Part shown: positions 1 through 15,503 of the stretch, in pieces | Layout of the letters: every line of letters starts with the position of its first letter | Position numbering within the stretch: position 1 is the first letter of the stretch | Assembly: GCA_030424555.1 (NCBI GenBank) | Contig: JAUHWK010000050.1 | Span: forward strand, 1-15,503 | Direction: 5' to 3' | DNA: 15,503 bases | From: a bacterium | Lineage (GTDB): Bacteria > Myxococcota_A > UBA796 > GCA-2862545 | Made by a program: the position numbers and the translations under genes | The notes under the pieces: model-generated | Told to the model about the DNA's origin: nothing | Database searches by the model: none | What the model saw: only the letters and a program-made list of their open reading frames with translations

Positions 1-1
1 C

Positions 2-832: not shown

Positions 833-847
833 GGTCCGGAGGACGGC

Positions 848-1114
848 ATGAGCGAGAGCACCCTGCACGCGATCACCGGCATGATCGGCGAGGTCCTGGG
901 CGACGAGATGGTGGACGAGCCCATCACCATGGAGACCTCGTTCGCCGACGACCTGGAGATCGAGAGCATCGAGCTGGTTCAGCTGGCCGAGCTGGTCGAG
1001 GCACGGTGGGGCGAGAAGGTCGACTTCAACGCCTGGATCGCAGGACAGTCGATCGACGACGTGATCTCGCTCACCGTCGGGGACCTCGTCACGTTCGTCG
1101 ACTCGTGCCTCTGA
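848..1114 (+). CDS. Stand-alone acyl/peptidyl carrier protein (88 aa)
   Basis: ATG 848 is preceded by GGAGG (838-842, 5-nt spacer). An 88-aa acidic four-helix-type protein with FADDLEIESIELVQL, i.e. a candidate phosphopantetheine-attachment Ser in an ExS(I/L) context in place of the classic DSL. Stop TGA 1112-1114. Confidence 0.7.
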   Translation: MSESTLHAITGMIGEVLGDEMVDEPITMETSFADDLEIESIELVQLAELVEARWGEKVDFNAWIAGQSIDDVISLTVGDLVTFVDSCL

Positions 1115-1866
1115 TCGACGGACCGGCAGGGGCGCTGCACGTCGTGGACGTGGGGCCGGGGGGCCCTGGCACGCCGCTGGTGATGCTGCACGGCCTGCTG
1201 CTGGGCAACGTGGCGAGCTGGTACTTCACCGCGGCGCCGACGCTCGCCCGGTCTCGGCCGGTGCGTCTGTACGACCTGCGGGGCCACGGGCGCAGCGCGC
1301 GGCCCGCCAGCGGGTACGATCCAGACACGATGGCGGACGATCTCGACGCGGTCGTGGCCGATCTCCCCGGTCCGATCGACCTCGTGGGCCACAGCTACGG
1401 GGCGCGGGTGGCGCTGGCGTGGGCCGCCCGCAACCCCGGCCGGGTCCGGCGGATCGTGCTGGTGGAGATCCCCGGTCGAACCGGGGCGAACGCGGAGATC
1501 TCGGCGTTCTTCGAGGCGGGGCCCGAGGCGATGGTCGCGGCCCTCCCCGAGGGACTCCGTGCGGCGGTCGCGAATGGCCGGCGTCAGGCGCGGCGCTTGC
1601 TCACAAACCTCGCGGGGCTCGCCACCCAGACCACCCTGCTCGCGGACCTGGGCTCGGGAGGCGACGTCCCCGACGCTGTCGTCTCCGCGTGTACCCACCC
1701 AGTCCTGGTGGTGGTGGGGGCGTCGTCGGCGTGTGCCGACGATGGCCGGGCCTTGGCGTCGCGGCTCGCCGACGCGCGGGTCGAGGTTCTGCCGGGCGGG
1801 CACTACCTGCACCTCGATGCCACCGCCGCCCTCACCGAGACCATCGGAGCGTTCCTCGATGGCTGA
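1105..1866 (+). CDS. Alpha/beta-hydrolase-fold protein, thioesterase-like (paralog 1)
   Basis: HG oxyanion region LVMLHGLL. Nucleophile elbow VGHSYGARVA (G-H-S-x-G). C-terminal catalytic His in LPGGHYLHLD. About 253 aa, typical of type II thioesterase-like hydrolases. Start is uncertain: GTG 1105 overlaps the ACP stop, GTG 1144 is an alternative. The ORF-track start at 829 is an artefact that overlaps the ACP in another frame. Stop TGA 1864-1866. Confidence 0.7.
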   Translation: MPLIDGPAGALHVVDVGPGGPGTPLVMLHGLLLGNVASWYFTAAPTLARSRPVRLYDLRGHGRSARPASGYDPDTMADDLDAVVADLPGPIDLVGHSYGARVALAWAARNPGRVRRIVLVEIPGRTGANAEISAFFEAGPEAMVAALPEGLRAAVANGRRQARRLLTNLAGLATQTTLLADLGSGGDVPDAVVSACTHPVLVVVGASSACADDGRALASRLADARVEVLPGGHYLHLDATAALTETIGAFLDG

Positions 1867-2644
1867 GATCACCCCCCACGACGTCACCCTGCACGTGCAG
1901 ACCACGGGCTCGGGATCCCCGGCGGTCCTGTTCCTGCACGGCCTCGTGATGGACAACCTGTCGAGCTGGTACTTCACCGCCGGGACCCGGGTCGCGCGGG
2001 ATGGCGCCACCGCGGTGTTGATGGACCTGCGGGGGCACGGCCGGAGTGAGCGGCCGGCGACCGGCTACGGCGTGGAGGTCCTGCTGGCCGACATCGTCGG
2101 GGTGCTCGACCACCTCGGCCACGCGCAGGTCGTGGTCGCGGGCAACAGCTTCGGCGGACAGCTCGCCGCGGCCCTCGCGATCGCCCACCCCGAGCGGGTG
2201 CAGGGGGTCGTGCTGGTGGACGCCCACCTGGGCGCGGAGGGCTGGGGGGATGCGATGGCGTCGACCCTTTCCCTCACGGGCGAGGCGCGTGACACCATGA
2301 TCGCGACCCACTTCCAGGACTGGCTGGGGCGCCACAGCACGCGCAAGCGCACGCGGCTCGCCGACACGGCGCGGGCGCTGGTGGAGGGCACCACGTTGGT
2401 CGCCGACCTCCAGGCGTCGCCGGGGCTTGAGGACGACGCGATCGCCCAGTGGACCATGCCGGTCCTCGCCCTGTACGGACAGGACAGCGACCTGCGGGAC
2501 GAGCCCGACCGGCTGCGGCGGCTCGTGCCCCACGCGGACGTGCGGGTGTTCGAGGGCGCGACCCACTCGCTGATGTGGGAGCGAACGGCCGAGGTCGTGG
2601 ACGCGATCGCGGGTTTTGTGGCGGGGTTCCGATGCGAAGGGTGA
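1859..2644 (+). CDS. Alpha/beta-hydrolase-fold protein, thioesterase-like (paralog 2)
   Basis: ATG 1859 overlaps the upstream stop (ATGGCTGA). Clear paralog of the upstream gene: both have LHGL...N..SWYFTA and DLRGHGRSxRPAxGY. Nucleophile elbow here is AGNSFGGQLA (G-N-S-x-G); catalytic His in FEGATHSLMWE. The ORF-track N-terminal extension from 1559 is not supported. Stop TGA 2642-2644. Confidence 0.75.
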   Translation: MAEITPHDVTLHVQTTGSGSPAVLFLHGLVMDNLSSWYFTAGTRVARDGATAVLMDLRGHGRSERPATGYGVEVLLADIVGVLDHLGHAQVVVAGNSFGGQLAAALAIAHPERVQGVVLVDAHLGAEGWGDAMASTLSLTGEARDTMIATHFQDWLGRHSTRKRTRLADTARALVEGTTLVADLQASPGLEDDAIAQWTMPVLALYGQDSDLRDEPDRLRRLVPHADVRVFEGATHSLMWERTAEVVDAIAGFVAGFRCEG

Positions 2645-3813
2645 TGATCGTTGTGCCCCCGCTGGTGGGCCACATCCAGCCCACGGTCGCCCTCGGCCAG
2701 GCCTTGTTGGCCCGCGGACACGACGTGGTGTGGGTGGGCTACCCCACGCGGCTCGAGGGGCGGGTTCCGCCGGGAGGGCGCCTGCATGCGCTCCAGCACG
2801 GGATGGACGATGCCGCGCTCGCGGCCGTCAAGGCGCGGGGCCTGGGGCTTCGTGGGGCGGCAGCGTTCAAGTTCTTGTGGGAGGACCTGTTCTTCCCGCT
2901 GTCCCGCGCGATGCTGGACGGCGTGGCCGAGGCCGTGGCGGCCGAGCAGCCGGACGTGATCGTCCACGATCAGCAGGCGTTCGCGGGCGCCCTCGTCGCA
3001 CGCCGAGCGGGGATCCCGCTGGTGACGAATGCGGCGACGTCGGCCCAACTCTCGGATCCGTTCGACAGCCTTCCTCAGTTTCGAACATGGCTTCAGGACG
3101 GGATGGCGTCCTTGGCCGAGGCGGCAGGATTGCCGGCCGATCCGAGCCAGGTGGCGTCCGACACCGCGATCCTGGCCTGGTCGACCCGTGCGCTGGTCGG
3201 CGACGCGGCGCTTCCACCCCAGACGGTGCTGGTGGGGCCGGCGCGGGGGCCGAGGGCGGACGCCCCGCCGTTCGCGTGGGACCGACTGGACGATCGCCCC
3301 CTGGTGTTCGTCAGCCTGGGCACGGTGTCGATCGACATCGGCGCGCGCTTCTTCGAGGCGGCGGCCACGGTGTTCGCGGAGCGGCCTCACCTCCAGGGCG
3401 TGTTGGTGGCGCCGCCCGAGGCGGTGCAGGCCCCCGACAACCTGCTCGTGGCCTCCTACGTCCCCCAGCTCGACCTGCTCGCGCGGTCGACGGCGGCCGT
3501 GTGCCACGGGGGCCACAACACCGTGGTCGAAGCACTGAGCGAGGGGCTCCCGCTGGTGGTGGCGCCGGTGCGCGACGACCAGCCGGTGGTCGCGGCGCAG
3601 GTCGAGGCGGCGGGCGCAGGGGTGCGGGTTCGGTTTGGACGCATCCGGGCACAGACCCTGGGGGCGGCGCTGGATCGGGTCCTGCAGGACGGGGCGTTCC
3701 GGGCGGCGGCGGGCCGGGTGCGGGACAGCTTCGCGGCCGCGGGGGGCCCGGCGCAGGCGGCGGACGTCGTCGAGCGCGTCATGCGCGAAAGGTCGACGCC
3801 ACCTCGTCCATGA
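2632..3813 (+). CDS. GT1-family UDP-glycosyltransferase (MGT / macrolide-glycosyltransferase-like)
   Basis: N-terminal MRRVMIVVPPLVGHIQPTVALGQALLARGH is the GT-B N-domain GH(I/V)xP motif. C-terminal CHGGHNTVVEALSEGLPLVVAPVRDDQP matches the UDPGT/PSPG-type nucleotide-sugar binding signature. Start is ATG 2632 (overlaps upstream gene by 13 nt) or ATG 2644 (TGATG junction). Stop TGA 3811-3813. Confidence 0.8.
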   Translation: MRRVMIVVPPLVGHIQPTVALGQALLARGHDVVWVGYPTRLEGRVPPGGRLHALQHGMDDAALAAVKARGLGLRGAAAFKFLWEDLFFPLSRAMLDGVAEAVAAEQPDVIVHDQQAFAGALVARRAGIPLVTNAATSAQLSDPFDSLPQFRTWLQDGMASLAEAAGLPADPSQVASDTAILAWSTRALVGDAALPPQTVLVGPARGPRADAPPFAWDRLDDRPLVFVSLGTVSIDIGARFFEAAATVFAERPHLQGVLVAPPEAVQAPDNLLVASYVPQLDLLARSTAAVCHGGHNTVVEALSEGLPLVVAPVRDDQPVVAAQVEAAGAGVRVRFGRIRAQTLGAALDRVLQDGAFRAAAGRVRDSFAAAGGPAQAADVVERVMRERSTPPRP

Positions 3814-4978
3814 GGGCGTCCATCCGGCCGTCGGAGGCGAGGTTGACCGGGATGCTGGCGAGCAGGTCGAACCCGTCGGGCGTGCCGACCAGCGCCATGA
3901 ACAGCGAGGTGACGGGGGTCCCGGGGGGGATGAACACCACCTGTCGCCCGGTGAAGCCGGCGCCGTGCAGGGGGGAGGGGTCCATCCGGCCGAGGTTGGA
4001 GAGCACGCCGGTGCTTCCGTAGCGCCCGGTCTTGCCGTGCTGGCGTCCGCGGTGGCGGGCGACCGCGCGCATCAGCCACAGTGGAACGTGGCGTAGGCCG
4101 TCGGCGGGGAGCAGGCTCGCGGCGGGCTGGTGGGCGGCGATCGCCTGCACGAGGGCGTCGCCGAGGTCGTGGCTGTCCTGCCCGGGCTGGACCTCCAGCG
4201 AGATCATCCCCGTGAGGTTTCCGGTGGAGCGCACACTGGGGTGGTCGCGGCGGAGATCGGCGGGGATGTCGAACCGGATCGGGGCGTCGTCGCCGTGGTG
4301 GGCGCGGGCGTGGGCGGCGACCGCGTGGGCCACGCGGGGCAGGACGGCTTTGTGCTTTCCGGGGATCGATCGGCGCGTCCAGACCACCTCGTGGGACGTG
4401 CCAGTGGGGCGGCCGGTGGGCGCCACGTAGCGGTCTTCGGGGGGCGTCATCGGCTCCAGGCCTTCCGGGCGGGGCAGGTCGCCGTCGAAGGTGGTGTCGG
4501 CGTGGCCCACGCACGGCTCGCCGCGGAGCGCGCGGAACACGTCCTCCGCAAAGAACTGGGTTCCGCGGCCGTCCATCGTGGCGTGGGCGGTGCGGAAGGC
4601 GACCCGGGGGGTGGGGCCGTGCATCAGGACCACCTCGGTGGTGGGCCCGTGGTGGGGATCGAGGGGCCGCTGGAGCCAGGGGGCGCCGTCGCCCGATCGG
4701 CCGTCCCATGGGCTGCCGTCGACCTCGGTGACCGGGGGGACAGGACCCCGGTCGTCCCAGACGGTCCAGCCGACCCAGCCGCGACGGACGACCCGGGCGC
4801 CGGGGTTGGCGCGTGTGGCCTCGGCGACGGCCTCACGCCAGCGCGCGGCGTCGAGCGTGCCCTCGCCCTCGACGATCATCTGGTTGTTGAACGGGGCGAA
4901 CAGCTCGTGGGCGACGACCCAGGCGCGCTCGATGCCGGACATCGGACGACGGTAGGCGGGGACGAGGGTGGTGGTCAT
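3779..4978 (-). CDS. Condensation-domain-like acyltransferase (PapA5 / WS-DGAT-like), 399 aa
   Basis: ATG (rc of 4976-4978) overlaps the stop of the upstream methyltransferase (ATGA). Contains RTAHATMDGRGTQFF, a variant of the HHxxxDG catalytic motif of condensation/PapA/WS-DGAT acyltransferases in which the second (catalytic) His is retained. Length and N-terminal region are similar in layout to PapA5-type enzymes. Stop is rc of 3779-3781. Confidence 0.6.
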   Translation of the reverse strand: MTTTLVPAYRRPMSGIERAWVVAHELFAPFNNQMIVEGEGTLDAARWREAVAEATRANPGARVVRRGWVGWTVWDDRGPVPPVTEVDGSPWDGRSGDGAPWLQRPLDPHHGPTTEVVLMHGPTPRVAFRTAHATMDGRGTQFFAEDVFRALRGEPCVGHADTTFDGDLPRPEGLEPMTPPEDRYVAPTGRPTGTSHEVVWTRRSIPGKHKAVLPRVAHAVAAHARAHHGDDAPIRFDIPADLRRDHPSVRSTGNLTGMISLEVQPGQDSHDLGDALVQAIAAHQPAASLLPADGLRHVPLWLMRAVARHRGRQHGKTGRYGSTGVLSNLGRMDPSPLHGAGFTGRQVVFIPPGTPVTSLFMALVGTPDGFDLLASIPVNLASDGRMDALMDEVASTFRA

Positions 4979-5844
4979 GCGTCCTCAGGCGCCATGCGGG
5001 CGGTGAACACGCGCTGCTCGGTGCGGGTGTCGAGGTGGGGGACGGCCCACGCGTCGGGCGCGTCGGAGGGGGCGAGGGTGCGAACCTCCGAGAACCCGGC
5101 GGACCGCAGGTCGTCGAGCACATCGGCCTGCGATGTGGGATTTTCGGCCAGGCCTTCGCCCCCGGTGAACCGTCGCATCCAGGCGCCGAGCAGGCGGGCG
5201 ACCCAGCCGGGCGGCGGCTTGTCGGCGGGCGGCACGTAGTCGAACGCGACCCAGCCCCCGGCGGGCCGCAGGCGGGCGGCGATCCGGTGCAGGAGGTCGC
5301 GGCGCGCGGCGTCGTCCAGGTACATCAGCAAGCCCTCGGCGAGCACCATCGTGGGGCCGTCGGTCCCGGTGAGGTCGACGAGGTCGGCGCCGCGCAGGTC
5401 GGCGGGGAGCCGGGTGAGGGTGGGACGCGCGGACACGGCCTGTCCCTGAGGATCCCGGGCCAGCAGGGCGGCCTTGTACGAGACGACCTCCGGCAGATCG
5501 ACCTCGGTCCAGGCGACGTCGTGGGTGGCGGTGAACGCGGTGCCGCGGGGGGACAGGCCCGCCGCGAGCTCGAGGACGGTGGTGGCGCCTTGTGCCAGCG
5601 CTTCGTGGACCAAGGCGTCCAGCATCACGTGCCGCTGGACGAGCCCGTGCCGCAGGCTGGGGGCGTTGCGGACGAACCACCCGGCGATGCGCAGCACGCC
5701 CTCGACCGTGCCGAACACCCGGCGGGTGGCGACGGACGCGTAGCGATCGGCACCCGGCCGCTCGGACCAGGCCCACACCCCGGCGGTGTACAGCGCGGTC
5801 ACCGGGAGACCGCCACGGGGGACGGGGGGATCGACGGGGGCCAC
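4975..5844 (-). CDS. Class I SAM-dependent methyltransferase (TIGR00027 / leucine-carboxyl-MT-like putative O-methyltransferase)
   Basis: GTG start (rc of 5842-5844) with GGAGG 4 nt upstream. Motif I VLELAAGLSPRG (cf. VVxLGAGLDTR) and EVDLPEVVSYKAALL (cf. EVDQPxVIxFK) match the actinobacterial TIGR00027 methyltransferase family. 289 aa. Confidence 0.75.
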   Translation of the reverse strand: MAPVDPPVPRGGLPVTALYTAGVWAWSERPGADRYASVATRRVFGTVEGVLRIAGWFVRNAPSLRHGLVQRHVMLDALVHEALAQGATTVLELAAGLSPRGTAFTATHDVAWTEVDLPEVVSYKAALLARDPQGQAVSARPTLTRLPADLRGADLVDLTGTDGPTMVLAEGLLMYLDDAARRDLLHRIAARLRPAGGWVAFDYVPPADKPPPGWVARLLGAWMRRFTGGEGLAENPTSQADVLDDLRSAGFSEVRTLAPSDAPDAWAVPHLDTRTEQRVFTARMAPEDA

Positions 5845-5913
5845 GGCACCTCCGAGGCGACGGCGCGATGACGCCGGCTCGGGGTCCGGCTACCCGCCTC
5901 GCGGGAGGTGTGC
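5845..5913. promoter_or_regulatory. Divergent 69-bp intergenic region, presumably carrying back-to-back promoters for the MT-acyltransferase operon and the PFK-2/FBPase-2 gene
   Basis: This is the only non-coding gap between divergently oriented genes in the left half. It contains RBSs for both genes (GGAGG on each strand). No -10/-35 boxes can be called confidently in this GC-rich sequence. Confidence 0.3.
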
Positions 5914-7161
5914 ATGGCGTGGCGTCCGGTCGACCTCGATCCGCTGGTGTTGGTGATGGTGGGCAAGCCCGCCCGCGGCAAGACGTTCACCGCCCGGCGG
6001 CTGGCCCGCTACCTGACCTGGCTCGGCTACCGGGCCCGGGTGTTCAACGTCGGGACCTACCGGCGGCGGCACCTGGGGGCGGGTCAGCCCGCGTCGTTCT
6101 TCGACCCCGACAACGCCGAGGGGGTGGCCGCCCGGGAGACGATGGCCCGCGAGGCGGTCGATGACCTGATCACCTGGATCGGGGACGGGGGGGAGGTGGG
6201 CCTGCTCGACGCCACCAACGGCCGGCGAGACCGACGGGACTGGGTGCGGCGCGCCTGCGAGGAAGCGGGCCTGCGCGTGCTGTTCATCGAGCTGTCGGTG
6301 GAGGACGACGGGGTCATCGAGTCCAACGTGCGCGGCACGAAGATCCACGGGCTGGACTACGAGGGGTGGGTGGCCGACGACGCCGTCCGCGACTTCATGC
6401 AGCGCATCGCCGCGTACGACCGCGCCTGGCAGCCGCTGGACCCCGCGGAGGGCGACCACATCCGCCTGATCGACGGCGGGCGGCGCATTGAAGCCCAGGG
6501 CCTGCACGGACACCTGGCCGGTCGGCTCGCCACGTTCTTGCTCCACCTGCACCACGGCACCCGCTGCATCGTCCTGTCCCGACACGGGGAGAGCCGGTTC
6601 AACCTGGAGCATCGGATCGGGGGGGACGCGGAGCTGTCGGACCGGGGCGCGGCCTACGCCCGCCGCCTCCGGGACTGGGTCCATCGCCCAGGCCAGACCG
6701 ATCTGGACGGCCTCGCCGTGTGGACCAGCACGTTGCGGCGCACGATCGCCACCGCGGCGGACCTGGGGGCCCCCACCCGTCCCTGGAAGCTGCTGGACGA
6801 GATCGACGCCGGCGTGTGTGACGGCCTGACCTACGACCAGGTCCACACGCGCTTTCCCGACGAGTTCGCCGCCCGGCGCGCCGACAAGTTCAGCTACCGC
6901 TACCCACAGGGCGAGTCCTACCAGGACGTGATCGACCGCCTCGATCCGGTGGTCCTGGAGCTCGAACGCCAACAGCGCCCGCTGATGATCGTCGCCCACC
7001 AGGCGGTGCTGCGCGTGCTGTACGGCTACCTCGCGGGGGTCCACCCCCACCGGATCCCGCACCTCGAGATGCCGCTGCACACGGTGATGCGGGTCACGCC
7101 GGGGGCGTACGGCACCACCGAGACCCGAGAAGTGCTGGGGCCGGAGGCCGTCCAGACCTGA
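5914..7161 (+). CDS. Bifunctional 6-phosphofructo-2-kinase / fructose-2,6-bisphosphatase (PFK-2/FBPase-2)
   Basis: GGGAGG at 5903-5908 then ATG 5914 (GTG 5908 is an alternative). Kinase domain: LVMVGKPARGKTFTARRLARYLTWLGYRARVFNVGTYRR (cf. eukaryotic VMVGLPARGKTYIS..LTRYLNWIG...FNVGEYRR), LLDATNGRRDRR (cf. FDATNTTRERR) and LFIELSVEDDGVIESN. Phosphatase domain: IVLSRHGESRFNLEHRIGGDAELSDRG (RHGE phospho-His motif, cf. [24 protein letters not shown]) and IVAHQAVLRVLYGYL (cf. VICHQAVMRCLLAYF). Confidence 0.8.
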   Translation: MAWRPVDLDPLVLVMVGKPARGKTFTARRLARYLTWLGYRARVFNVGTYRRRHLGAGQPASFFDPDNAEGVAARETMAREAVDDLITWIGDGGEVGLLDATNGRRDRRDWVRRACEEAGLRVLFIELSVEDDGVIESNVRGTKIHGLDYEGWVADDAVRDFMQRIAAYDRAWQPLDPAEGDHIRLIDGGRRIEAQGLHGHLAGRLATFLLHLHHGTRCIVLSRHGESRFNLEHRIGGDAELSDRGAAYARRLRDWVHRPGQTDLDGLAVWTSTLRRTIATAADLGAPTRPWKLLDEIDAGVCDGLTYDQVHTRFPDEFAARRADKFSYRYPQGESYQDVIDRLDPVVLELERQQRPLMIVAHQAVLRVLYGYLAGVHPHRIPHLEMPLHTVMRVTPGAYGTTETREVLGPEAVQT

Positions 7162-7167
7162 TCGGGC

Positions 7168-10100
7168 CTACTCCTCCCGGGCGCGGTCGGCGCGCGCGGC
7201 GAGGTCGGCGATCGCGCTGGCGACCGTGCGGCGGAGGTCCTGGGTCCAGGCCTCGTGGGCGTCCTTGGGCAGGTGGGCCCGGGCGGAGGCGAGCATGTGG
7301 ACCGTGAGCATCTCGATCACGGACAGGGCCGCGGCCAGGTTGGGATCGCCGTCGGACGGGACACGGCGGAGATCGCCGCCCACGGCGCGTCGGGCCTGAT
7401 CCAGGAGCCGCGCCCGGCGGGCGTCGTGGTCGAGGGCGCCGGGGTCGCCTTGGGAGGGCCGGACGGCGTCGCGCAGGGACCGCAGCTCGGCGAGCATGTC
7501 CTGCATCGCGCCGGGGACAGCGGGGGCGGGAGCGGGCGTGGCGGTGGCGAGGTGGGTTGCGATGGCCTGCAAGGGCCCCGCGACGGCCTGGAGATCGGGC
7601 GGCGGGGCCTCGGCCAGCTGACCGTGGACGGCGCGGAGGGCGCGCGCGAGGTCGGCCAGGTGCTGGGTGGTGCCGCGGTCGGACGCCATGGTCTCGCGAA
7701 GCGCCGAGAGCTGCTCGTGGAGGCCGGCGAGGGCGTGCGGCACGGCGGGGTCTCGCAGGCCGGGGCCGAGGGTGCCGACGGCCTCCACCAGCCCGGACAG
7801 CACGCCGACCACGCGGGTGGCTGGGTCGTCGCCGTCGCCGCCCATGAGGCGCTGACGCCGGGTCTCCTGCCGGATGGCGTCCAGGCGCTCGGCACCGACC
7901 TCGTCGAGGCGTCCTCGGAGCTCCGCGAGCCGGAGGAGGTTGAACTCGGCCCCGGTGGTGAGGGTCTGCGACTCGCCACGGTAGTGGTCGTCGATCAGCC
8001 GGTCGACCTCCTCGTCGCGCAGGGCGGGCACGATGCGCTGCGCCAGCTTGGCCATGTTTCGGTAGCTGCCCTGGAGCTGGAACCGGGGCTCGGTCCGGAA
8101 CCGGTCCTCCATCGCAGCGCTGCGCACGTACTCGGCGTTGACCCGGAGCAGGACGTCGCGGCACCGGAACAGGTGCCGCAGCACGGTGAGGATCTCGGAG
8201 CGCTCGACGGCGCTGTAGTCGTGCGACAGCGCGGACGGCGGCAGCTCCTCGCCCTGCGCCATGCGCACCAGGGCATAGACGTCGGCCTGGGCCCGGTCGG
8301 CGAGCGGCTGCAGGACCGGGTTGGACGTGAGCGCGTTCTCGACGAAGGACAGGGCGAACACGTCCTCGCGCCCGTCGAGGACGTCGCCGAGGTTGTAGGT
8401 GTCGGCGCGGTTGGCGAGCATGTCGGGCACCTGGAACCGGTCGCCGGACTCCGTGTACGGGTTGCCGGCCATCACGACCGCGAACTTGCGTCCCCGCAGG
8501 TCGTAGGTGCGGGTGCGCCCGTTCCACACGCCCTCGATGCGGCGGCTGGCGTCGCACAGGGAGATGAACTTCTGGAGCAGCTCGGGGTTCGTGTGCTGGA
8601 TGTCGTCCAGGTACAGCAGGACGTTGTCGCCGAGCTCGAGCGCTAGGTTGATCTTGTCGACCTCCTGCCGGGCGGTGGCGTTGGGGGCCTCTTCGGGGTC
8701 GAGGCTGGTGACGCCGTGGCCGAGGGCCGGGCCGTTGACCTTGACGAACACGAGGCCGAGGCGGTCGGCGACGTACTCCATCAGGGTGGTCTTGCCGTAG
8801 CCGGGGGGGCTGACCAGGAGCAGCAAGCCCATCAGGTCGGTGCGCTTGGCGTCGCCGGCGGCGCCGATCTGCTTGGCGAAGTTGTCGCCGATCAGGGGCA
8901 GGTAGGCGTCCTGGATGAGCTTGTTGCGCACGAACGCGCTCATCACCTTGGGCTCGAGCTCGTCGATGCGCAGGCGGTGTCGCCAGCGCTCGAGGACGTC
9001 GTGACGGGTGGCCCGCCAGGCGCGGAAGCCCGGCACGCGCTCGGTGGCGAAGCGGGTGAGGCGGTCGAGGAAGGGGGCGAGGGACAGGTCCATCGCGCCG
9101 TCGCGGACGCGCGGGTGGCGCCCCAGCAAGCCCTGGACCGTGGTGCGGGCCTCGGTGGCCTCCACCTGGATGTCGACCTGGCGCTCGACCAGCCACCACA
9201 CCGCGGTCTCGAACGCGACGCCGGGATCGGCCGGGGCATCGGCCGTGCTGGCGATCGCCTCGCACCAGGCGTGCAGGACCTGGAGGTGCTCGACGGGACG
9301 GTCGGACAGCGCCCGGAGGCGATCGTCGAACGCGCCGCGGCCGCCATGGTCTTCGATCCAGCGGTCGAGGCGGGCGCGCAGGTCCTGGGCGGCGGACGAC
9401 ACGGCCATGCGGGCGGGCTCGGTGGCGAGGGCGTCGACCAGGGCCGCCCCGGCGGCGGGGAGGTCGGACGCCCACTGGCTGGGGCCGCCCGGGACGTCGA
9501 ACCCGATCTCCTGGAGCCACGCGCGGAGGACACCGGTGAGCTCGGTGGCGAAGGCCTCGGCGGCGCCGCCTGGACCCAGGGTGTCGCGGATCCGCACGAG
9601 CGTGCGGGCCCGGGCCTGCCACGCGCCCCACGGTGCGTCGGTGTGCAGCCCCCGAAACAGCATCGCCAGGGCGCGGGCGCGGGTGCCAAAGCGCTGCCAC
9701 CCGGCGGCCTGGCGGAGCTGGACGAGTGCCTTGAGGATCGCGGCGGCATCGACGTCGTGGACGCCGCGATCGTACCCCTCGTCCCAGGCCTCCGCGGTGT
9801 GCGAGCGCACGATGTCGAGCAGGCCGGCTTCGGTGAGAAGGGCCTGCTCCAGCGTGCTGACGTCGAGGCCGTCGCCGCGCTGGGCGGCATCGAGGACGCG
9901 CCAGGCCAGGTACTCGGCGCGGTAGACCGCCTCGGTCTCGCTGACGAGGGCCTGGTCCCAGTACGCACGGGCCGCGAGGACGTCGGGATCGTCGAGGCGC
10001 TGCCGGAACTGGGTGCCGGTGAGGGTGAGGGCGACGTGCAGGTCGTCGCCCTCGCCGTCGGGGACGAGCGCCAGCTCGAACGGCTGGGTGTTCACGGTGA

Positions 10101-12729
10101 ACTTGTGGCGCCCGAGGCTGATCAGCCGGTCGGCGTCGAACAGCTCGGCGTCGTCGCGCAGCGCGCGGAGGGCATCCTGGCGGGTGCGGCGAAGGCGTCC
10201 CCGGAGATCCTCGGCGCGCACGGTGTCGCCCAGGGAGACGAGCTCGTCGGCGAGGGCGCGCAGGCGGCCCACCATGGGGTCGGCGGCGAAGAAGCTGTTC
10301 AGGGCGTCTTCGTCGGTGTGGGTCCGGGCCCGTCGGGCGAGGCCCTCCAGGATCCGATCGGCGGCCGCGACCCGGGCGGCGACCCGCCGGTTCCGGTCGT
10401 CCAGCAGGCGCTGTCGGCGGGCGGCGAACGCGCTGTGGACGTCCTCGCGCTGGGTGGTGAGGGCTGGGAGGAACGCATCCGACGCGCCGAACCGGGCCTC
10501 GAGCTCCTCGACCTGGAGCAGGAGGCGCGACAGCTGTTCGTCGCACGCCTCGGGGGTGTCGCACCGGGCCAGGGCGGACTGGACGGCCTGGGACAGCAGC
10601 TTGATCTGCGCGGAGAACTCGGCCTCACCCTCCTTGGCCGCCAGGGCTTCTTCGCGTTGCTCGAGCGCGAGCCGGACCCGGTTGGCGGTGCTGAACACCT
10701 CGCCGATGCGATCGAGCAGGGCGGCCTTGCGGGTGGGATCGTCGACCTCGAGGCCCGCCACCACCTCGGCGAGCAGGTCCACGCCCTCGGCGGTCTGGGT
10801 GAGGCGCTCGGCCCAGGGCTCCAGCTCCAGGGTTCGTCGAACCCCTGGCAGGGCGGCCTCGACCTCGGCCAAGCCCTGGATCAACGGTGCGAAGGCGGCC
10901 TCGCCCTCCAAGAACCGGATCGTGGCCTGCCCGACCCGTTCGAACCGCGTCTCGGCCTCGTCGCCCAGCGCCTGCAAGGCGGCGCGATCGGCGAAGCGGA
11001 CGTCCTGCAGCGTGATCAGGTGCCCGCGGTGTCGGCGGAGACGGGTCATCGCGCCGAGCAGGGCGTCGATGCTGGTGAGGCGCTCGGTGCGCACCGCGTC
11101 CATCAGCGAGGCGTGCTCCTCGCGGGCCGCGCGCAGGGTGTCGGCGGCGCGGCGCTGCAGGACCAGGACCTTTTCGAACTCGTCGACGACCTGCTCGGTC
11201 GCTTGCAGGGTGGCCTCGACCGCCTCGGCGAGGCCGTGCATCGAGGCATCGGACGCCCAGTAGTGGGCGTCGAGGAAGCGCTGGCACCCGGCGGCGAGCT
11301 CGTCGAAGGCGGCTCGGGTGGGCTCGGGGTGGGTGGCGAGGCGGGCCAGGGTGAGGGCGTCGGACACCCCGCGCACCAGCTCGGCGTTGCCCACGCGGGC
11401 GATCAGGTCGTCGCCGTGGGCGGCGGGGTCGACGTGCTCCGGGTGGACGAACGGGGTGCGCCAGAGCTGGATCGGGTGGACGCGGGTGGGGTCGGGCTGG
11501 GCGCGGAACACGGCCAGCGTGCCGTCGTCGAACAGGGACCAGCCGTGGGCGTGGATGGGGGTGCGGACGTCCTTGCGGATGAGGTTGTAGCTGTACAGGG
11601 CGTACAGGCCGTCGGACGCGCGGTGGAACACGTACAGGACGTCTTCGCCGTTGGGGGCGTCGAGGCGCCGGACGAACCGCATCCCGTCGTGCTCGGCGTC
11701 GAACACCTTGTGCTGGCCGTCGCGCAGGACGTACCCGCCGGGGAACAGGATGCCGTGGTCCTCGGGCAGGGTGACGCAGCTGGCGCCGAGGGCGTCGATG
11801 CGCAGGACCTGCCGGGTGGTCCGCACGAACACGAGGTGGCGGGTGACGGCCTCGTTGAAGGGCGTGATGCGCAGCAACAGCAGGGAGCCGCGGTCGGCGT
11901 AGGCGATGGCGGCGTCGTCGAGAGACTGGTTGGGGTCGTCGACGGGCTCGGAGTACACGCCCTCCCCGGTCTCCGTGTTGTCCTCGACCTTGACCGTGAG
12001 GTCGCCGCCGACGGTCTCGACGAACACGGTGTCGAGCACGTTGACGTGGGGGTGCCGGCCGCGGACGTGGTCGTCGCGGGTGGTGGCGGTCCAGGTGAAG
12101 TCGTGGGCGGGCGGGAACACGTGGTCGCGCTCGCCGCGGTTGTCGACGTAGGTGGGGGTGTCGTCGGCGGTGAGATCCCACCGGAGGACCTTGACGTCCT
12201 CGGGCCGCTTGCCGATGCGGAACACGGCGAGCAGGCGTCCGTCGACGCGGCGCAGCTGGGTGAGCCGGGCGTCCGCGTAGTACTGGAACAGCTCGTTGAA
12301 CTCACGGTCGAACGCCGGGCCCTCGAGGAAGGACCGGGCGCTCTCGGCCGCGGGGCGGAAGGTGGGGACGTCGCCGCTGCGGTCGATGGTGTACAGGCCG
12401 AACACGTCGCCGGGCGAGGTGGTCTGCTTGAGGCCGAGGAACACCTCGTAGCCGACCAGCAGGTGGTCCCCGATCGGGACCATGTCGTGGGGGGTGTTGG
12501 CGTGCTCGGTGCGCACGCGCTCCTGGCCGAGCACCTCGAACGACACCGAGCCGAACCGATCGACCCGCTGGGCGTTGAGGGTGTCGGCGGCGGCCTTGAC
12601 CGCGGAGGCTCGGTCGGCGAGGCGGCGGCGCAGGACGCCGTAGTTGCCCTGGTCGACCGCGGCGTCGGTGCCCTCGGGGGCGGGATCGGACGGGGCGTCT
12701 TGGGTGGGGTCGTCAGCTCGGTCGGCCAT
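7168..12729 (-). CDS. Giant (1853 aa) protein with an embedded MoxR/AAA_5-type AAA+ ATPase module; function unknown
   Basis: ATG (rc of 12727-12729) with GGGAGG 8 nt upstream. Balanced amino-acid composition, unlike the G/A/V-rich antisense ORF. The AAA module is annotated separately. The N-terminal ~1250 aa and the low-complexity C-terminal ~280 aa match nothing I can recognise. Stop is rc of 7168-7170. Confidence 0.75.
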   Translation of the reverse strand: MADRADDPTQDAPSDPAPEGTDAAVDQGNYGVLRRRLADRASAVKAAADTLNAQRVDRFGSVSFEVLGQERVRTEHANTPHDMVPIGDHLLVGYEVFLGLKQTTSPGDVFGLYTIDRSGDVPTFRPAAESARSFLEGPAFDREFNELFQYYADARLTQLRRVDGRLLAVFRIGKRPEDVKVLRWDLTADDTPTYVDNRGERDHVFPPAHDFTWTATTRDDHVRGRHPHVNVLDTVFVETVGGDLTVKVEDNTETGEGVYSEPVDDPNQSLDDAAIAYADRGSLLLLRITPFNEAVTRHLVFVRTTRQVLRIDALGASCVTLPEDHGILFPGGYVLRDGQHKVFDAEHDGMRFVRRLDAPNGEDVLYVFHRASDGLYALYSYNLIRKDVRTPIHAHGWSLFDDGTLAVFRAQPDPTRVHPIQLWRTPFVHPEHVDPAAHGDDLIARVGNAELVRGVSDALTLARLATHPEPTRAAFDELAAGCQRFLDAHYWASDASMHGLAEAVEATLQATEQVVDEFEKVLVLQRRAADTLRAAREEHASLMDAVRTERLTSIDALLGAMTRLRRHRGHLITLQDVRFADRAALQALGDEAETRFERVGQATIRFLEGEAAFAPLIQGLAEVEAALPGVRRTLELEPWAERLTQTAEGVDLLAEVVAGLEVDDPTRKAALLDRIGEVFSTANRVRLALEQREEALAAKEGEAEFSAQIKLLSQAVQSALARCDTPEACDEQLSRLLLQVEELEARFGASDAFLPALTTQREDVHSAFAARRQRLLDDRNRRVAARVAAADRILEGLARRARTHTDEDALNSFFAADPMVGRLRALADELVSLGDTVRAEDLRGRLRRTRQDALRALRDDAELFDADRLISLGRHKFTVNTQPFELALVPDGEGDDLHVALTLTGTQFRQRLDDPDVLAARAYWDQALVSETEAVYRAEYLAWRVLDAAQRGDGLDVSTLEQALLTEAGLLDIVRSHTAEAWDEGYDRGVHDVDAAAILKALVQLRQAAGWQRFGTRARALAMLFRGLHTDAPWGAWQARARTLVRIRDTLGPGGAAEAFATELTGVLRAWLQEIGFDVPGGPSQWASDLPAAGAALVDALATEPARMAVSSAAQDLRARLDRWIEDHGGRGAFDDRLRALSDRPVEHLQVLHAWCEAIASTADAPADPGVAFETAVWWLVERQVDIQVEATEARTTVQGLLGRHPRVRDGAMDLSLAPFLDRLTRFATERVPGFRAWRATRHDVLERWRHRLRIDELEPKVMSAFVRNKLIQDAYLPLIGDNFAKQIGAAGDAKRTDLMGLLLLVSPPGYGKTTLMEYVADRLGLVFVKVNGPALGHGVTSLDPEEAPNATARQEVDKINLALELGDNVLLYLDDIQHTNPELLQKFISLCDASRRIEGVWNGRTRTYDLRGRKFAVVMAGNPYTESGDRFQVPDMLANRADTYNLGDVLDGREDVFALSFVENALTSNPVLQPLADRAQADVYALVRMAQGEELPPSALSHDYSAVERSEILTVLRHLFRCRDVLLRVNAEYVRSAAMEDRFRTEPRFQLQGSYRNMAKLAQRIVPALRDEEVDRLIDDHYRGESQTLTTGAEFNLLRLAELRGRLDEVGAERLDAIRQETRRQRLMGGDGDDPATRVVGVLSGLVEAVGTLGPGLRDPAVPHALAGLHEQLSALRETMASDRGTTQHLADLARALRAVHGQLAEAPPPDLQAVAGPLQAIATHLATATPAPAPAVPGAMQDMLAELRSLRDAVRPSQGDPGALDHDARRARLLDQARRAVGGDLRRVPSDGDPNLAAALSVIEMLTVHMLASARAHLPKDAHEAWTQDLRRTVASAIADLAARADRAREE
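8000..8900 (-). other. MoxR/AAA_5-like AAA+ ATPase module within the giant protein (approx. residues 1280-1570)
   Basis: Motif positions in plus-strand coordinates: Walker A ~8791-8815 (LLLLVSPPGYGKTTL), Walker B ~8596-8622 (VLLYLDDIQH), sensor-1 region ~8440-8500 (FAVVMAGNPYTESGDRFQVPDMLANRAD, cf. MoxR ATQNPxExEGTYxLPEAQLDRF), lid ~8024-8086 (QLQGSYRNMAKLAQRI, cf. MoxR SPRA...LLRAA). Boundaries are approximate. Confidence 0.6.
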
Positions 12730-12758
12730 CGCGGCGGACCTCCCTCGGGTGCAGGGGG

Positions 12759-12783
12759 GCCGGCCCGAGGGGATCGGGCCGGC
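12759..12783 (-). promoter_or_regulatory. GC-only 9-bp stem / 7-nt loop hairpin in the flotillin-to-ATPase intergenic region, with no U-tract; possible attenuator or RNA-stability element
   Basis: Plus strand gccggcccg-aggggat-cgggccggc (12759-12767 pairs with 12775-12783). Lies 17 nt after the flotillin stop (12801) and ~30 nt before the ATPase start codon. On the mRNA the sequence after the stem is CCCCCCUGC, so this is not a canonical intrinsic terminator. Confidence 0.3.
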
Positions 12784-12800
12784 GGGTCAGCGGCGAAGGC

Positions 12801-14789
12801 TCAGGCGTCGTCGTCGGTGCTGCCGGACAGCGCGTCGAGCACGGTGCCGACCGCGCCCTTGGCCGCGTCGCTGCGGGACAGGAACACGTCGAGGGCCTGA
12901 CCCAGCGAGGCGGCCTTGACGATGCTGTCGAGGAACTGGCCGTCGCCGCCCATGATCTGGATGTCGGCCTTGCCGAACGCCTCGGCGAGGACGGACGCCT
13001 GCTCCTCGGCGATCTTCTCCTGGGCGGCCAGCCGCGCCAGGGCGATCTTCTCGTCGAGGTTGAGCTTCATCCGGAACTCCTCGTGGTCCTTGGCGGGACC
13101 CTCCATCTTCTGCATGGCGAGCAGCTTCTCGGCGAGTCCGGTGGCCTCGGCGGCCATGCGGGCCTTGATCGCGGCGGCCTCGGCGGCCCCCATCTTCTCG
13201 ATCGCGATGGCGTCGGCTTCCTTGCCCTGGGCCTCGGCGACCATCTTCTCGCGCTGGAGCATGGCCTCGAGCTCGATCTCCTTCTCGCGAACGGCCATCG
13301 CGGCCAGGCCCTTGGCCTCGTCGCCCTTGGCCTCGGCGACCTTCTGCTCCGCGGTGACGCGGGCGGTCGCCATGCCCATCTTCTCGGTGGCGACGGCGTC
13401 GGCTTCCTTGACGCGGACCTTGGCGAGCCCTGCGGCGGCCTCCTCGGCTTGCACGCCCTCGGCAATGCGGGCCTTGGCCTTGGCGACGCGCTCGGCTTCC
13501 TCGAGCTTGGCGTTGGCGAGGGTGAGGGTCTCGCGGGCCTGGGCCTCGGCGGCCTTCTCGCGCGCCTCGGCGGCCTTGATCTCCTTGATCAGGAGCTCCT
13601 CGGCCTGGGCCTCGGCCTCGATGACGTGGACGTCCTTGTTGCGGGTGGCCTCCATGGTGGCGCGCAGGTCCTTGATGCGCTCCTCCTCCTCGGCCACGGT
13701 CTTGTCGATCGCGATGCGCGTGCGGACGACCTCGGCGATCTCCTTGCGCTTGACCTCCAGCTCCATCTCCTTGTCGATCTGCTGGCGCTCGACTTCACGC
13801 TCGCGGCCGATCACCTCGACCATGCGGTCGCGCTCGACGTGCTCGGCCTTGATCGCCACGACGCGCTCACGGTCCTTGTCTGCGACCTCGACCTGGCGGC
13901 GCTTGTTGAGGTCGCTGACCTCGATCTGCTCGGCGGCCTGGATGCGGGCGAGCTCGGCGCGCTGGTGCTCCTCGGCTTCGACCTTGGCGGTCTCGGCGGC
14001 CTCGCGGGCCTTGACCGTGGCGATCTCGCGCTGCTGGCGTGCCTCGGCGTCGGCGCGGCGGCGGCGCAGCTCGAGGATCTGCTCCTCGGCTTCGAGGTTC
14101 TGTCGGGTCTCCTCCTTCTTGTAGTCCTGGGCGAGCTGGTTGGTCTGCAGGTTCTGCTTGACCGTGATCTCGGTGATCTTGCGGATGCCCTGGGCGTCGA
14201 GGATGTTGTTTCGATCGAGCTTCTCGAGCGGGGTCTGCTCGAGGTAGTCGATGGCGGCGTCGTCGAGGACGTAGCCGTTGAGGTCGCGGCCGATGACCTC
14301 GATGATCCGGTCCTTGAAGTCGTCTCGCTGGGTGTACAGCTGCTCGAAGTCCAGCTTCTTGCCGACGGTCTTGAGGGCCTCGGAGAACTTGGCGACGAAC
14401 AGCTCCTCGAGGGTGGTCTGGTCGGACGCGCGGGCGCAGCCGATGCTCTGGGCCACCTTGAGCACGTCCTCCTTGGTCTTGTTGACCCGGACGTAGAAGC
14501 TGACCTTGATGTCGGCCCGGATGTTGTCGTGGCAGATCAGGCCTTCGTGGCCCGATCGGGCGATCTCGATGGTCTTGACCGAGATGTCCATGACCTCGGC
14601 CCGGTACACGATCGGGACGACCACGGCGCCGGTGAACGTGACGGCCGGCTCGGCGGTCATCTTGTTGACGATGAGGGCCTTGCCCTGGTCGACCTTGCGG
14701 TAGAACCGCGCGACCATCACGAGCGCGCCGGCGAAGAACACCGCCAGGCCCAACCCGACGAGAAGGGTGAAGATCATGGCTTCGGACAT
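12801..14789 (-). CDS. Flotillin-family SPFH/band-7 membrane protein (YqiK/FloT-like), 662 aa
   Basis: ATG (rc of 14787-14789) with GGAGG 7 nt upstream. N-terminal TM helix (IFTLLVGLGLAVFFAGALVMVA) followed by YRKVDQGKALIV, typical of flotillin SPFH domains. Long central Glu/Ala/Lys/Arg coiled coil with EA repeats. C-terminal flotillin-like tail. Stop is rc of 12801-12803. Confidence 0.9.
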   Translation of the reverse strand: MSEAMIFTLLVGLGLAVFFAGALVMVARFYRKVDQGKALIVNKMTAEPAVTFTGAVVVPIVYRAEVMDISVKTIEIARSGHEGLICHDNIRADIKVSFYVRVNKTKEDVLKVAQSIGCARASDQTTLEELFVAKFSEALKTVGKKLDFEQLYTQRDDFKDRIIEVIGRDLNGYVLDDAAIDYLEQTPLEKLDRNNILDAQGIRKITEITVKQNLQTNQLAQDYKKEETRQNLEAEEQILELRRRRADAEARQQREIATVKAREAAETAKVEAEEHQRAELARIQAAEQIEVSDLNKRRQVEVADKDRERVVAIKAEHVERDRMVEVIGREREVERQQIDKEMELEVKRKEIAEVVRTRIAIDKTVAEEEERIKDLRATMEATRNKDVHVIEAEAQAEELLIKEIKAAEAREKAAEAQARETLTLANAKLEEAERVAKAKARIAEGVQAEEAAAGLAKVRVKEADAVATEKMGMATARVTAEQKVAEAKGDEAKGLAAMAVREKEIELEAMLQREKMVAEAQGKEADAIAIEKMGAAEAAAIKARMAAEATGLAEKLLAMQKMEGPAKDHEEFRMKLNLDEKIALARLAAQEKIAEEQASVLAEAFGKADIQIMGGDGQFLDSIVKAASLGQALDVFLSRSDAAKGAVGTVLDALSGSTDDDA

Positions 14790-14896
14790 GCGGTGGCCTC
14801 CGGGGCGGCGTCACCACGCCACGGGGCGCGGTCGGGTGGTCAGGGACGGGGATGGAGATGGGGCGTGCACCCGGACGCGCCGGCTGCGTGGATCCC

Positions 14897-15503
14897 TCAG
14901 CCGCGGGGCGTGAGGGACTCGACGACGAAGGCCTCTCGGCGCGGATCGAAGGAGACGACGAGCGCCTCGCTGCCTCGCTGCAGGCCGTTGGACTCGGCAT
15001 CGCAGCGGACCTGGACGAGCAGGTGGTCGCCGTCGACCTGGACCTCGGCCTGGCCGAAGCTGCGGTCGACCCGGCCGGTGGTGACGGTGGCGGTGGCCCC
15101 GACCACGGAGTCGCGCGTGCGGCCAGCACGGAACTCGAACACGGGCAGCAAGGGCGTGGTGAGCAAGGACGCGCCCACCCCGCCGGCCACCCAGGCGCCG
15201 ACGAGCACGCCCGCGGATCCGGCGATCCAGGTGGCGCCCTCGGTCCCGCGCAGCATCACCGATCCCAGGTAGGACACCGCCCACCCGACCAGGAGCCACA
15301 CGGACAGGGTGATCGTGAGGGGGATGCGGCCGATGTGCAGTGCCTGCAGGACCGGGCCCAGGGACGAGGGAGCGTGACCGGCCTCTGCGGCCCCGTCGGC
15401 GGCGTCTGCCGCGGCGTCGACACCTTCCATGGCACCGTCGAGCGCGCCGTCGGCACCCTCGATCACCCCGTCGATCCCCTCCAAGGCGCCGTCGACCCCT
15501 TCG
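14897..15503 (-). CDS. NfeD-like (YqiJ/YuaF-type short NfeD) membrane protein with C-terminal OB-fold; partial, 5' end outside window
   Basis: Frame is open to the window edge; the ORF-track start at 15484 is a TTG. Two predicted TM helices (IPLTITLSVWLLVGWAVSYLGSVML; WIAGSAGVLVGAWVAGGVGASLL). C-terminal beta-rich segment GATATVTTGRVDRSFGQAEVQVDGDHLLVQVRCDAES...GSEALVVSFDPRREAFVVE is typical of NfeD OB-fold domains. Lies directly upstream of the flotillin gene, as in yqiJ-yqiK / yuaF-floT. Confidence 0.65.
   Translation of the reverse strand, partial: EGVDGALEGIDGVIEGADGALDGAMEGVDAAADAADGAAEAGHAPSSLGPVLQALHIGRIPLTITLSVWLLVGWAVSYLGSVMLRGTEGATWIAGSAGVLVGAWVAGGVGASLLTTPLLPVFEFRAGRTRDSVVGATATVTTGRVDRSFGQAEVQVDGDHLLVQVRCDAESNGLQRGSEALVVSFDPRREAFVVESLTPRG
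15391..15503 (-). repeat. Imperfect ~21-bp tandem repeat (at least 5 units, continuing beyond the window) encoding heptad repeats EGxDGxx / DAAADAA at the N-terminus of the NfeD-like protein
   Basis: Plus-strand units share ccgtcga(n)cccct...ggcgc with 21-nt periodicity (e.g. 15424-15444, 15445-15465, 15466-15486, 15487-15503). Translation on the minus strand gives EGVDGAL-EGIDGVI-EGADGAL-DGAMEGV-DAAADAA-DGAAEAG. Confidence 0.5.

Follow-up and report, generated by a model that had tools for sequence, protein, structure and literature searches.

Short NfeD-like membrane proteins and flotillins are encoded together in the two-gene units yqiJ-yqiK of Escherichia coli and yuaF-floT of Bacillus subtilis, and in Pseudomonas aeruginosa genes of both types belong to the Bac (biofilm-associated cluster) operon, bacABCDEF (PA3732-PA3727 / PA14_16140-16200). 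We have analysed a 15,503 nucleotide (nt) stretch of DNA from a bacterium of the Myxococcota_A lineage (GenBank assembly GCA_030424555.1, contig JAUHWK010000050.1, positions 1 to 15,503; hereafter the window), in which three minus-strand genes encode an NfeD-like protein, a flotillin and a very large ATPase of 1853 amino acids (aa). Judged by sequence, these proteins are orthologs of BacC/PA3730, BacD/PA3729 (PaFlo3) and PA3728 (PA14_16190, BacE), and their genes have the same order, on one strand, as in the Bac operon.

In strain PA14 the genes from bacA through PA14_16200 are linked by reverse transcription PCR (RT-PCR) across every junction, and BacB-F are up 6-13-fold in a bacA mutant (Wallart 2024, PMC10948618). 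Mutants deleted for PA3731, a gene that osmotic shock induces, are impaired in biofilm formation, swarming, rhamnolipid production and virulence (Mace 2008, PMC2587700). Expression of PA3728-PA3732 goes up when P. aeruginosa is infected by phage (PMC12041424). PA3728 is tabulated as an 'ATPase' in a review on adaptation to the cystic fibrosis lung (PMC8190622); the 2024 Bac paper contains neither the word 'ATPase' nor 'AAA', and the ATPase was therefore not characterised there. A 2026 study of P. aeruginosa flotillins places the PaFlo3 gene in the BAC cluster, leaves PA14_16190 unmentioned and holds that PaFlo3 has no conserved genomic context (PMC13086221). No mechanism for the giant ATPase is proposed in the Bac, PaFlo3 or PspA comparative-genomics papers, and it is not mentioned in Hinderhofer 2009 or in two Psp/ESCRT papers.

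The same neighbourhood has also been described from the side of PspA. Ravi et al. (mSystems 2024, PMC11237479) reported CesT/Tir-PspA together with a YqiJ/YuaF protein of three transmembrane helices, a Band-7/flotillin protein and a beta-propeller-coiled-coil-AAA+ ATPase (in some cases with PLD), as well as widely distributed 'abbreviated operons' of flotillin, YqiJ/YuaF and sometimes the AAA+ ATPase, and read the neighbourhood as membrane-dynamics machinery. All three protein architectures are identical to those of the window. Their account, which takes PspA as its centre, comes from computation alone, and it holds no counts of flotillin-ATPase linkage, no tie to PA3728 or Bac, and no intercistronic structure. 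We conclude that the window carries the abbreviated three-gene form of a known, mechanistically unexplored system, the core of the P. aeruginosa Bac operon. An initial reading of the window made from the sequence alone (the sequence-only reading) had taken the genes for a candidate undescribed SPFH-AAA+ module, knowing of no characterised system of the same composition. The module is indeed conserved as a three-gene unit across phyla, but it is not undescribed (PMC11237479, PMC10948618), since its architecture and its P. aeruginosa operon are both on record.

Conservation of the three-gene unit

The genes and the gaps between them, in the order of transcription, are as follows.

14897..15503, minus strand: YqiJ/YuaF-type short NfeD-like membrane protein, BacC/PA3730 ortholog, 5'-truncated by the window edge (listed with its translation as open reading frame (ORF) 14897-15484; the feature is open to the window end)
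14790..14896, minus strand: NfeD-flotillin gap, 107 nt, with a GGAGG Shine-Dalgarno sequence at 14797-14801
12801..14789, minus strand: flotillin, 662 aa, BacD/PA3729/PaFlo3 ortholog, in which an N-terminal membrane anchor (aa 1-30) is followed by an SPFH/Band_7 domain, a long predicted coiled coil rich in Glu and Ala, and a C-terminal region that is conserved
12730..12800, minus strand: flotillin-ATPase gap, 71 nt, with a 10-bp GC stem-loop (arms 12774-12783 and 12759-12768) and no U-run
7168..12729, minus strand: giant soluble ATPase, 1853 aa, ortholog of PA3728 / PA14_16190 (BacE)

The ORF coordinates reproduce exactly the co-directional arrangement and the two gap lengths given by the sequence-only reading, and the Shine-Dalgarno sequences that it had proposed for the second and third genes were located 5' of their ATGs: GGAGG at a spacing of 7 nt from the flotillin ATG, and GAGGGAGG (12739-12746) at a spacing of 9 nt from that of the giant. 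The GC content of the window is ~72%, and the coding frames of all three genes are backed by codon-position GC.

Linkage was scored in two sets of related loci. For the genome set, one genome per GTDB species was scanned and the best 80 loci with relatives of the giant (41-52% identity) were taken, which come from Myxococcota, Actinomycetota, Gamma- and Betaproteobacteria and Planctomycetota. The metagenome set was built from an alignment of the flotillin, and the reciprocal count uses the 68 of its loci that have at least 600 nt of downstream DNA. A same-strand flotillin ortholog (~50% identity) is found upstream of the giant in 79/80 genome loci, and the 80th has no DNA upstream of the giant. 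The gap between the two genes has a median of 99 nt and is below 0.7 kb in all measured genome loci except L016. Reciprocally, the giant lies downstream of the same flotillin subfamily in 62/68 metagenome loci, and an NfeD-family hidden Markov model matches 73/80 loci in each of the two sets. Synteny was the decisive check on the sequence-only reading, and both directions of the test bear out the pairing strongly. That a flotillin/NfeD pair and an unrelated large gene came together here by chance is vanishingly improbable to our minds, and is refuted by this recurrence of the same order and strand across phyla. These results indicate that the three genes are a conserved functional unit, linked far beyond chance.

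The linkage is confined to one kind of flotillin. In E. coli K-12 no giant gene follows yqiK, although the two-gene unit and its protein architectures are the same as those of the window pair; it is thus one particular flotillin subfamily to which the giant is linked. By sequence comparison, the flotillins adjoining the giant do form a separate subfamily, being ~50% identical to one another across phyla and only 28% identical to E. coli YqiK. Contrary to the view that PaFlo3 lacks a conserved context (PMC13086221), the context of its subfamily in the loci examined here, with NfeD upstream and the giant downstream in five phyla, is among the most conserved of any flotillin. No giant was found within up to 8 kb downstream of the flotillin (~51-56% identity) in the metagenome loci L096, L098, L102, L141, L144 and L146; the two giant-less loci that were inspected have a convergent sigma-54 activator and a Ser/Thr kinase in one case, and an integrase and a release factor in the other.

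Clustering of the neighbouring ORFs gave just two further recurrent families, DUF2170 (YbjN/CesT-like) and PspA_IM30, which as a pair immediately precede the NfeD gene in 14 loci of the genome set and 22-23 of the metagenome set. PspA is in the same operon in 37 of 160 related loci, and a PLDc_2 gene follows the giant in 15 of the 160. In Proteobacteria the DUF2170, PspA and PLD genes are added to the three-gene core, while DUF2170 (bacA) and PspA (bacB) are absent from all the myxobacterial and actinobacterial relatives examined. The context of the P. aeruginosa giant, P0126 in our set, reads DUF2170 - PspA - 213 aa - 688 aa - giant - PLDc_2 - yaeQ - recJ - M4 peptidase, which corresponds to PA3732 to PA3724. 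Compared with this arrangement, the window has no PLD gene (bacF) downstream and a convergent gene in its place; upstream, Bac has bacA (DUF2170) and bacB (PspA) with a sigma-54 promoter, and the window breaks off within the NfeD gene, short of where such genes would lie. Between flotillin and giant, 16 loci with proteobacterial-type operons encode a Zn-ribbon (TFIIB-type) protein of ~180 aa, for example:

L117, 10187-10732: Zn-ribbon protein
L140, 10232-10789: Zn-ribbon protein

In these two loci there is also a conserved 128-aa ORF with no Pfam match between PspA and NfeD. The recurrent neighbours are thus NfeD, flotillin, DUF2170, PspA, Zn-ribbon and PLD, with no conserved protease gene in the neighbourhood and no VWA gene among the conserved neighbours. 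The genes flanking the operon are of housekeeping or secondary-metabolism type and depend on the lineage, with no conserved defence island.

The three proteins

The NfeD-like ORF runs open to the end of the window and lacks an N-terminal transmembrane helix that its orthologs have, indicating that the gene is truncated at its 5' end and that the TTG at 15484, which the sequence-only reading had used as the start codon, is not its start. Comparison with 13 aligned orthologs and with E. coli YqiJ identifies the missing segment as the first transmembrane helix; what is retained is an acidic Gly/Asp linker, two hydrophobic helices (hydrophobic windows at aa ~60-84 and 96-115) and a putative C-terminal beta domain. 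The protein shares 28% identity with P. aeruginosa PA3730 (E=6e-12), and a profile of its family matches E. coli YqiJ with an hhalign probability of 88.8% (E=2.5e-6, 160 columns). Pfam YqiJ_N scores 20.7 bits, below its cut-off of 23, and a PDB profile search with the NfeD profile gave nothing significant. On these matches we regard the protein as homologous to YqiJ, and this, with the 28% identity of the flotillin to YqiK, agrees with the earlier assignment of the two genes to the yqiJ-yqiK/yuaF-floT type of pair.

The flotillin is 51% identical to P. aeruginosa PA3729 over 636 aa, and its match to E. coli YqiK (over 439 aa, E=7e-37) is aligned through the coiled coil. When aa 1-199 are scanned alone, Band_7 is found at 8.8e-10 (39.4 bits against a cut-off of 23.6), whereas a Pfam scan of the full-length protein gives no matches at all, Band_7 not appearing even at E<=10, because the Glu/Ala-rich coiled coil suppresses the match. 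P. aeruginosa PA3729 likewise seems to have no Pfam entry on record, an annotation pitfall for this subfamily. Pfam Flot matches neither the full-length nor the N-terminal sequence, and PDB sequence searches with the flotillin profile and with the SPFH domain alone gave nothing significant. The protein has a single N-terminal hydrophobic anchor (Kyte-Doolittle peak of 2.59 at aa 1-30), and the positive cluster RFYRK that follows it suggests that the bulk of the flotillin is cytoplasmic.

The giant has more than 5,400 homologous clusters and is 44% identical to its P. aeruginosa ortholog over 1693 aa. Its parts are as follows.

11260..12594, minus strand: DUF3686, aa 46-490 (Pfam 3e-183), modelled as a beta-propeller of ~28 strands with a long helix on its N-terminal side
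10648..10896, minus strand: DUF7902, aa 612-694 (Pfam 2.7e-19), inside a ~420-aa run of predicted helical bundles/coiled coil
7810..8862, minus strand: AAA+ module, aa ~1290-1640 (Pfam AAA 25.6 bits, AAA_5 24.7 bits), with invariant motifs
7171..7809, minus strand: C-terminal tail, a linker (aa ~1641-1790) and then a predicted helical hairpin (aa ~1791-1853)

The sequence-only reading had recognised AAA_5 as the only module of this protein, which the DUF3686 and DUF7902 matches and the modelled N-terminal half correct. In an AlphaFold2 (AF2) model of aa 20-1214, with a mean predicted local distance difference test score (pLDDT) of 79, the long helix leads into the propeller (strands at model residues 46-405) and the helical bundles, after which a small beta domain and a second helical domain would reach to ~aa 1180. 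Foldseek matches this model to propeller and propeller/solenoid proteins (Vps18, clathrin, IFT-A, dynein) at TM-scores all below 0.45, values too low for homology to these proteins to be drawn from them. The model of aa 1215-1853 (pLDDT 64) comprises an AAA+ core, a beta-hairpin inserted before sensor 1, a lid, and tail helices at model residues 580-605 and 608-638. The C-terminal linker is variable, of low complexity and rich in Ala, Gly and Leu, while the terminal ~60-aa hairpin is conserved and partly hydrophobic. No segment of transmembrane grade is present in the giant, the nearest being a borderline Kyte-Doolittle value of 1.68 at aa 1798-1816, and Pfam detects no peptidase, DNA-binding or nuclease domain in it.

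Pfam AAA and AAA_5 match aa 1303-1426 only marginally, just above their gathering cut-offs. Even so, Walker A (SPPGYGKTT, 1307-1315), Walker B (LYLDD, 1372-1376), sensor-1 (N1423), a candidate Arg finger (R1441) and a lid with QGSYRNM (R1557) can be assigned, and these motifs are invariant in 12 diverse homologs. The AAA+ module therefore appears catalytically intact by its motifs. Its affiliation is less clear: the C-terminal model gives weak mixed Foldseek matches to MCM, NorQ/CbbQ and RuvB at E~1e-3 that fix no clade, and a PDB sequence search with the giant profile returned Walker A stretches only. Since these fold and sequence similarities are weak and mixed, the MoxR class proposed from the sequence is unproven, and with AAA_5 barely passing its threshold and no VWA partner we do not retain it. 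The modelled pre-sensor-1 hairpin is compatible only with the wider PS1-hairpin superclade.

Intergenic structure and neighbouring genes

A terminator/promoter scan found no canonical terminator or promoter in either the 107-nt or the 71-nt gap, in line with the earlier statement that no terminator lies between the genes. That statement had however missed the strong GC stem-loop, without a U-run, in the 71-nt gap. The minimum free energy of this gap is -39.2 kcal/mol (z=-3.59), with 0/200 shuffles as stable, and further predicted pairing covers the GAGGGAGG Shine-Dalgarno sequence. Across 63 related loci (L001-L161), flotillin-giant gaps have a median z of -1.79, with z<-2 in 27/63, whereas the NfeD-flotillin gaps taken as controls have a median z of +0.08 against dinucleotide shuffles, with z<-2 in 4/63 (Mann-Whitney p=1.9e-10). 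The P. aeruginosa flotillin-giant gap (L162 7852-8000) is predicted to form a ~30-bp hairpin (z=-2.5). Read-through past it is evident from the RT-PCR product that spans the bacD-PA14_16190 junction (PMC10948618), which bears out, for the orthologs, the co-transcription that had been proposed for the window genes. The Bac and Psp papers make no mention of an intercistronic stem-loop, and its recurrence between flotillin and ATPase genes across phyla is a new observation. The contrast between structured flotillin-giant gaps and unstructured NfeD-flotillin gaps suggests a conserved device that reduces the output of ATPase relative to scaffold, and the stem-loop may thus be a dosage-setting element.

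The remaining genes of the window with assigned products are all on the plus strand.

5908-7161, plus strand: 6-phosphofructo-2-kinase/His_Phos gene, convergent with the giant (Pfam 6PF2K 4.8e-59, His_Phos_1 9.8e-38)
2449-3813, plus strand: EryCIII/UDPGT-type glycosyltransferase, secondary-metabolism type
829-1866, plus strand: alpha/beta hydrolase, secondary-metabolism type
14-832, plus strand: polyketide-synthase dehydratase fragment, secondary-metabolism type

The 6PF2K/His_Phos gene ends 6 nt from the stop codon of the giant, which is therefore the last gene of its operon. Fused 6PF2K/His_Phos is mainly a eukaryotic enzyme architecture, and its presence in a high-GC bacterium is worthy of note. 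The secondary-metabolism-type genes at 14-3813 have no relation to the flotillin operon, and the window ORFs between 3.8 and 5.9 kb have no Pfam matches.

Possible mechanisms

The best explanation, in which we have somewhat better than even confidence, is that the locus encodes a widespread Psp-like membrane-stress module in its three-gene 'abbreviated' form, bacABCDEF of P. aeruginosa being the proteobacterial form with six genes, and that the scaffold of this module is turned over by the AAA+ ATPase. By analogy with solved SPFH/NfeD assemblies, the YqiJ-type NfeD (BacC-like) and the flotillin (BacD-like) would form a membrane-anchored oligomeric scaffold at the inner membrane, on its cytoplasmic side. 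The soluble BacE-like giant would dock onto this scaffold through its propeller and/or C-terminal hairpin, and its AAA+ ring would spend ATP to assemble, disassemble or recycle the scaffold, along with PspA/ESCRT-III polymers where pspA is linked; its part in repairing and remodelling the membrane would be turnover of a Vps4-like kind. All three genes would be co-transcribed, with the stem-loop probably holding expression of the ATPase below that of the scaffold.

Several lines of evidence support this explanation: the two-way linkage, the presence of NfeD in most loci of each set, the specific flotillin subfamily and the recurrent link to PspA; the orthology to PA3730/PA3729/PA3728, the co-transcription and co-regulation of Bac, its osmotic and phage induction and the reading of this neighbourhood as membrane-dynamics machinery (PMC11237479); and the invariant AAA+ motifs, the lack of a transmembrane segment in the giant and the flotillin anchor followed by positive residues. 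The likeness to Vps4-ESCRT-III lies in the genetic coupling of an AAA+ ATPase to membrane-remodelling polymers (PspA, ESCRT-III superfamily). Unlike Vps4, the giant lacks both an MIT domain and the clade signature of classical AAA proteins of the Vps4 type, is five times larger and has a predicted beta-propeller, and in the three-gene form there is no PspA.

A number of observations weigh against turnover of the scaffold. The proposal presupposes physical contact of the ATPase with flotillin, NfeD or PspA. In ~9% of the loci with the same flotillin subfamily there is no adjacent giant. The Walker B motif ends in DD rather than DE, the models of the giant come from shallow alignments (pLDDT 64 and 79) with weak fold matches, and the AAA+ core is as weakly like MCM, RuvB or NorQ as like any protein-remodelling AAA+, so that the substrate class is not fixed by sequence. 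Deletion of paFlo3 (PA14_16180) in PA14 has marginal phenotypes, with ~20% less biofilm (PMC13086221), and the strong bac phenotypes come from bacA and bacB mutants.

The same flotillin-giant linkage would be expected if the flotillin/NfeD scaffold confined or regulated an AAA+ machine that unfolds or extracts damaged membrane or membrane-proximal clients, that is, if the module served quality control in the manner of HflK/C-FtsH. This, the interpretation of the sequence-only reading, is the main alternative, and we think it unlikely, though worth serious consideration. In that complex an SPFH scaffold is coupled to an AAA+ enzyme, FtsH, which is anchored in the membrane and carries a protease domain, and HflK/C are turned towards the periplasm. 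SPFH cages around FtsH thus provide a precedent, the modelled beta-propeller could bind clients, and Staphylococcus aureus FloA-NfeD is reported to stabilise unfolded proteins (PMC11222466, as cited in PMC13086221). However, the window ATPase is soluble and has neither a protease domain nor a transmembrane anchor, the conserved neighbours include no protease that could be its partner, and the predicted orientation of the flotillin is towards the cytoplasm. The analogy with HflK/C-FtsH drawn in the sequence-only reading is accordingly a loose one, which holds for the coupling of an SPFH scaffold with an AAA+ enzyme, and polymer turnover is the better match for the recurring link to PspA.

An anti-phage or conflict system, in which a membrane-linked sensor/effector and a large ATPase (in some versions joined by a nuclease or lipase of the PLD family) trigger abortive infection, could account for the induction of PA3728-PA3732 by phage (PMC12041424), the patchy distribution over several phyla, resembling that of horizontal gene transfer (PMC13086221), and the PLDc_2 gene that follows the ATPase in some loci. 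We consider it improbable. PADLOC gave no defence-system match, its best hit (E=0.004) covering the Walker A stretch of the giant only, with none for flotillin or NfeD; the flanking genes form no conserved defence island; and the 90%-identity cluster of P0126 holds 3,222 sequences named P. aeruginosa. Phage induction is moreover a classical and generic behaviour of Psp systems. Less probable again, and in our view very unlikely, is a DNA-repair ATPase that merely shares a transcript with membrane proteins, as the product names of the family would have it ('DNA repair ATPase' in NCBI, 'ATPase involved in DNA repair' in Pfam). Some weak RuvB and MCM similarity and the nearby recJ of P. aeruginosa would fit, but the RuvB similarity is limited to ~45 residues round Walker A (19.5 bits against a cut-off of 282), NCBIfam giving only sub-threshold RuvB models at 17-20 bits against cut-offs of 282-299. 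With no DNA-binding or nuclease domain detected by Pfam, no paper found for DUF3686, DUF7902 or PF12458, and a strict cross-phylum linkage to membrane proteins and not to repair genes, this label, which is spread over thousands of genomes, appears to be without support from the searches made here or from the literature.

Turnover of a flotillin scaffold, the reading that we prefer, can be taken a step further. The BacE-type giant may be the founding member of an SPFH-dedicated AAA+ class, a cytoplasmic disassemblase of flotillin (and PspA) that docks via its propeller or hairpin and whose dosage is set by the stem-loop; we put this forward tentatively, as a possibility with the balance somewhat against it. 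Bacterial flotillins are widely studied, their molecular function is debated and knocking them out has mild effects. The locking of a very large conserved AAA+ protein to one flotillin subfamily in at least five phyla offers an ATP-dependent partner as a biochemical handle, and the Bac papers, the PaFlo3 study and PspA comparative genomics can be seen each to cover part of one and the same module. If the disassemblase proposal is true, the giant would be the first dedicated energy-consuming partner for bacterial flotillins, from Actinomycetota to Pseudomonas.

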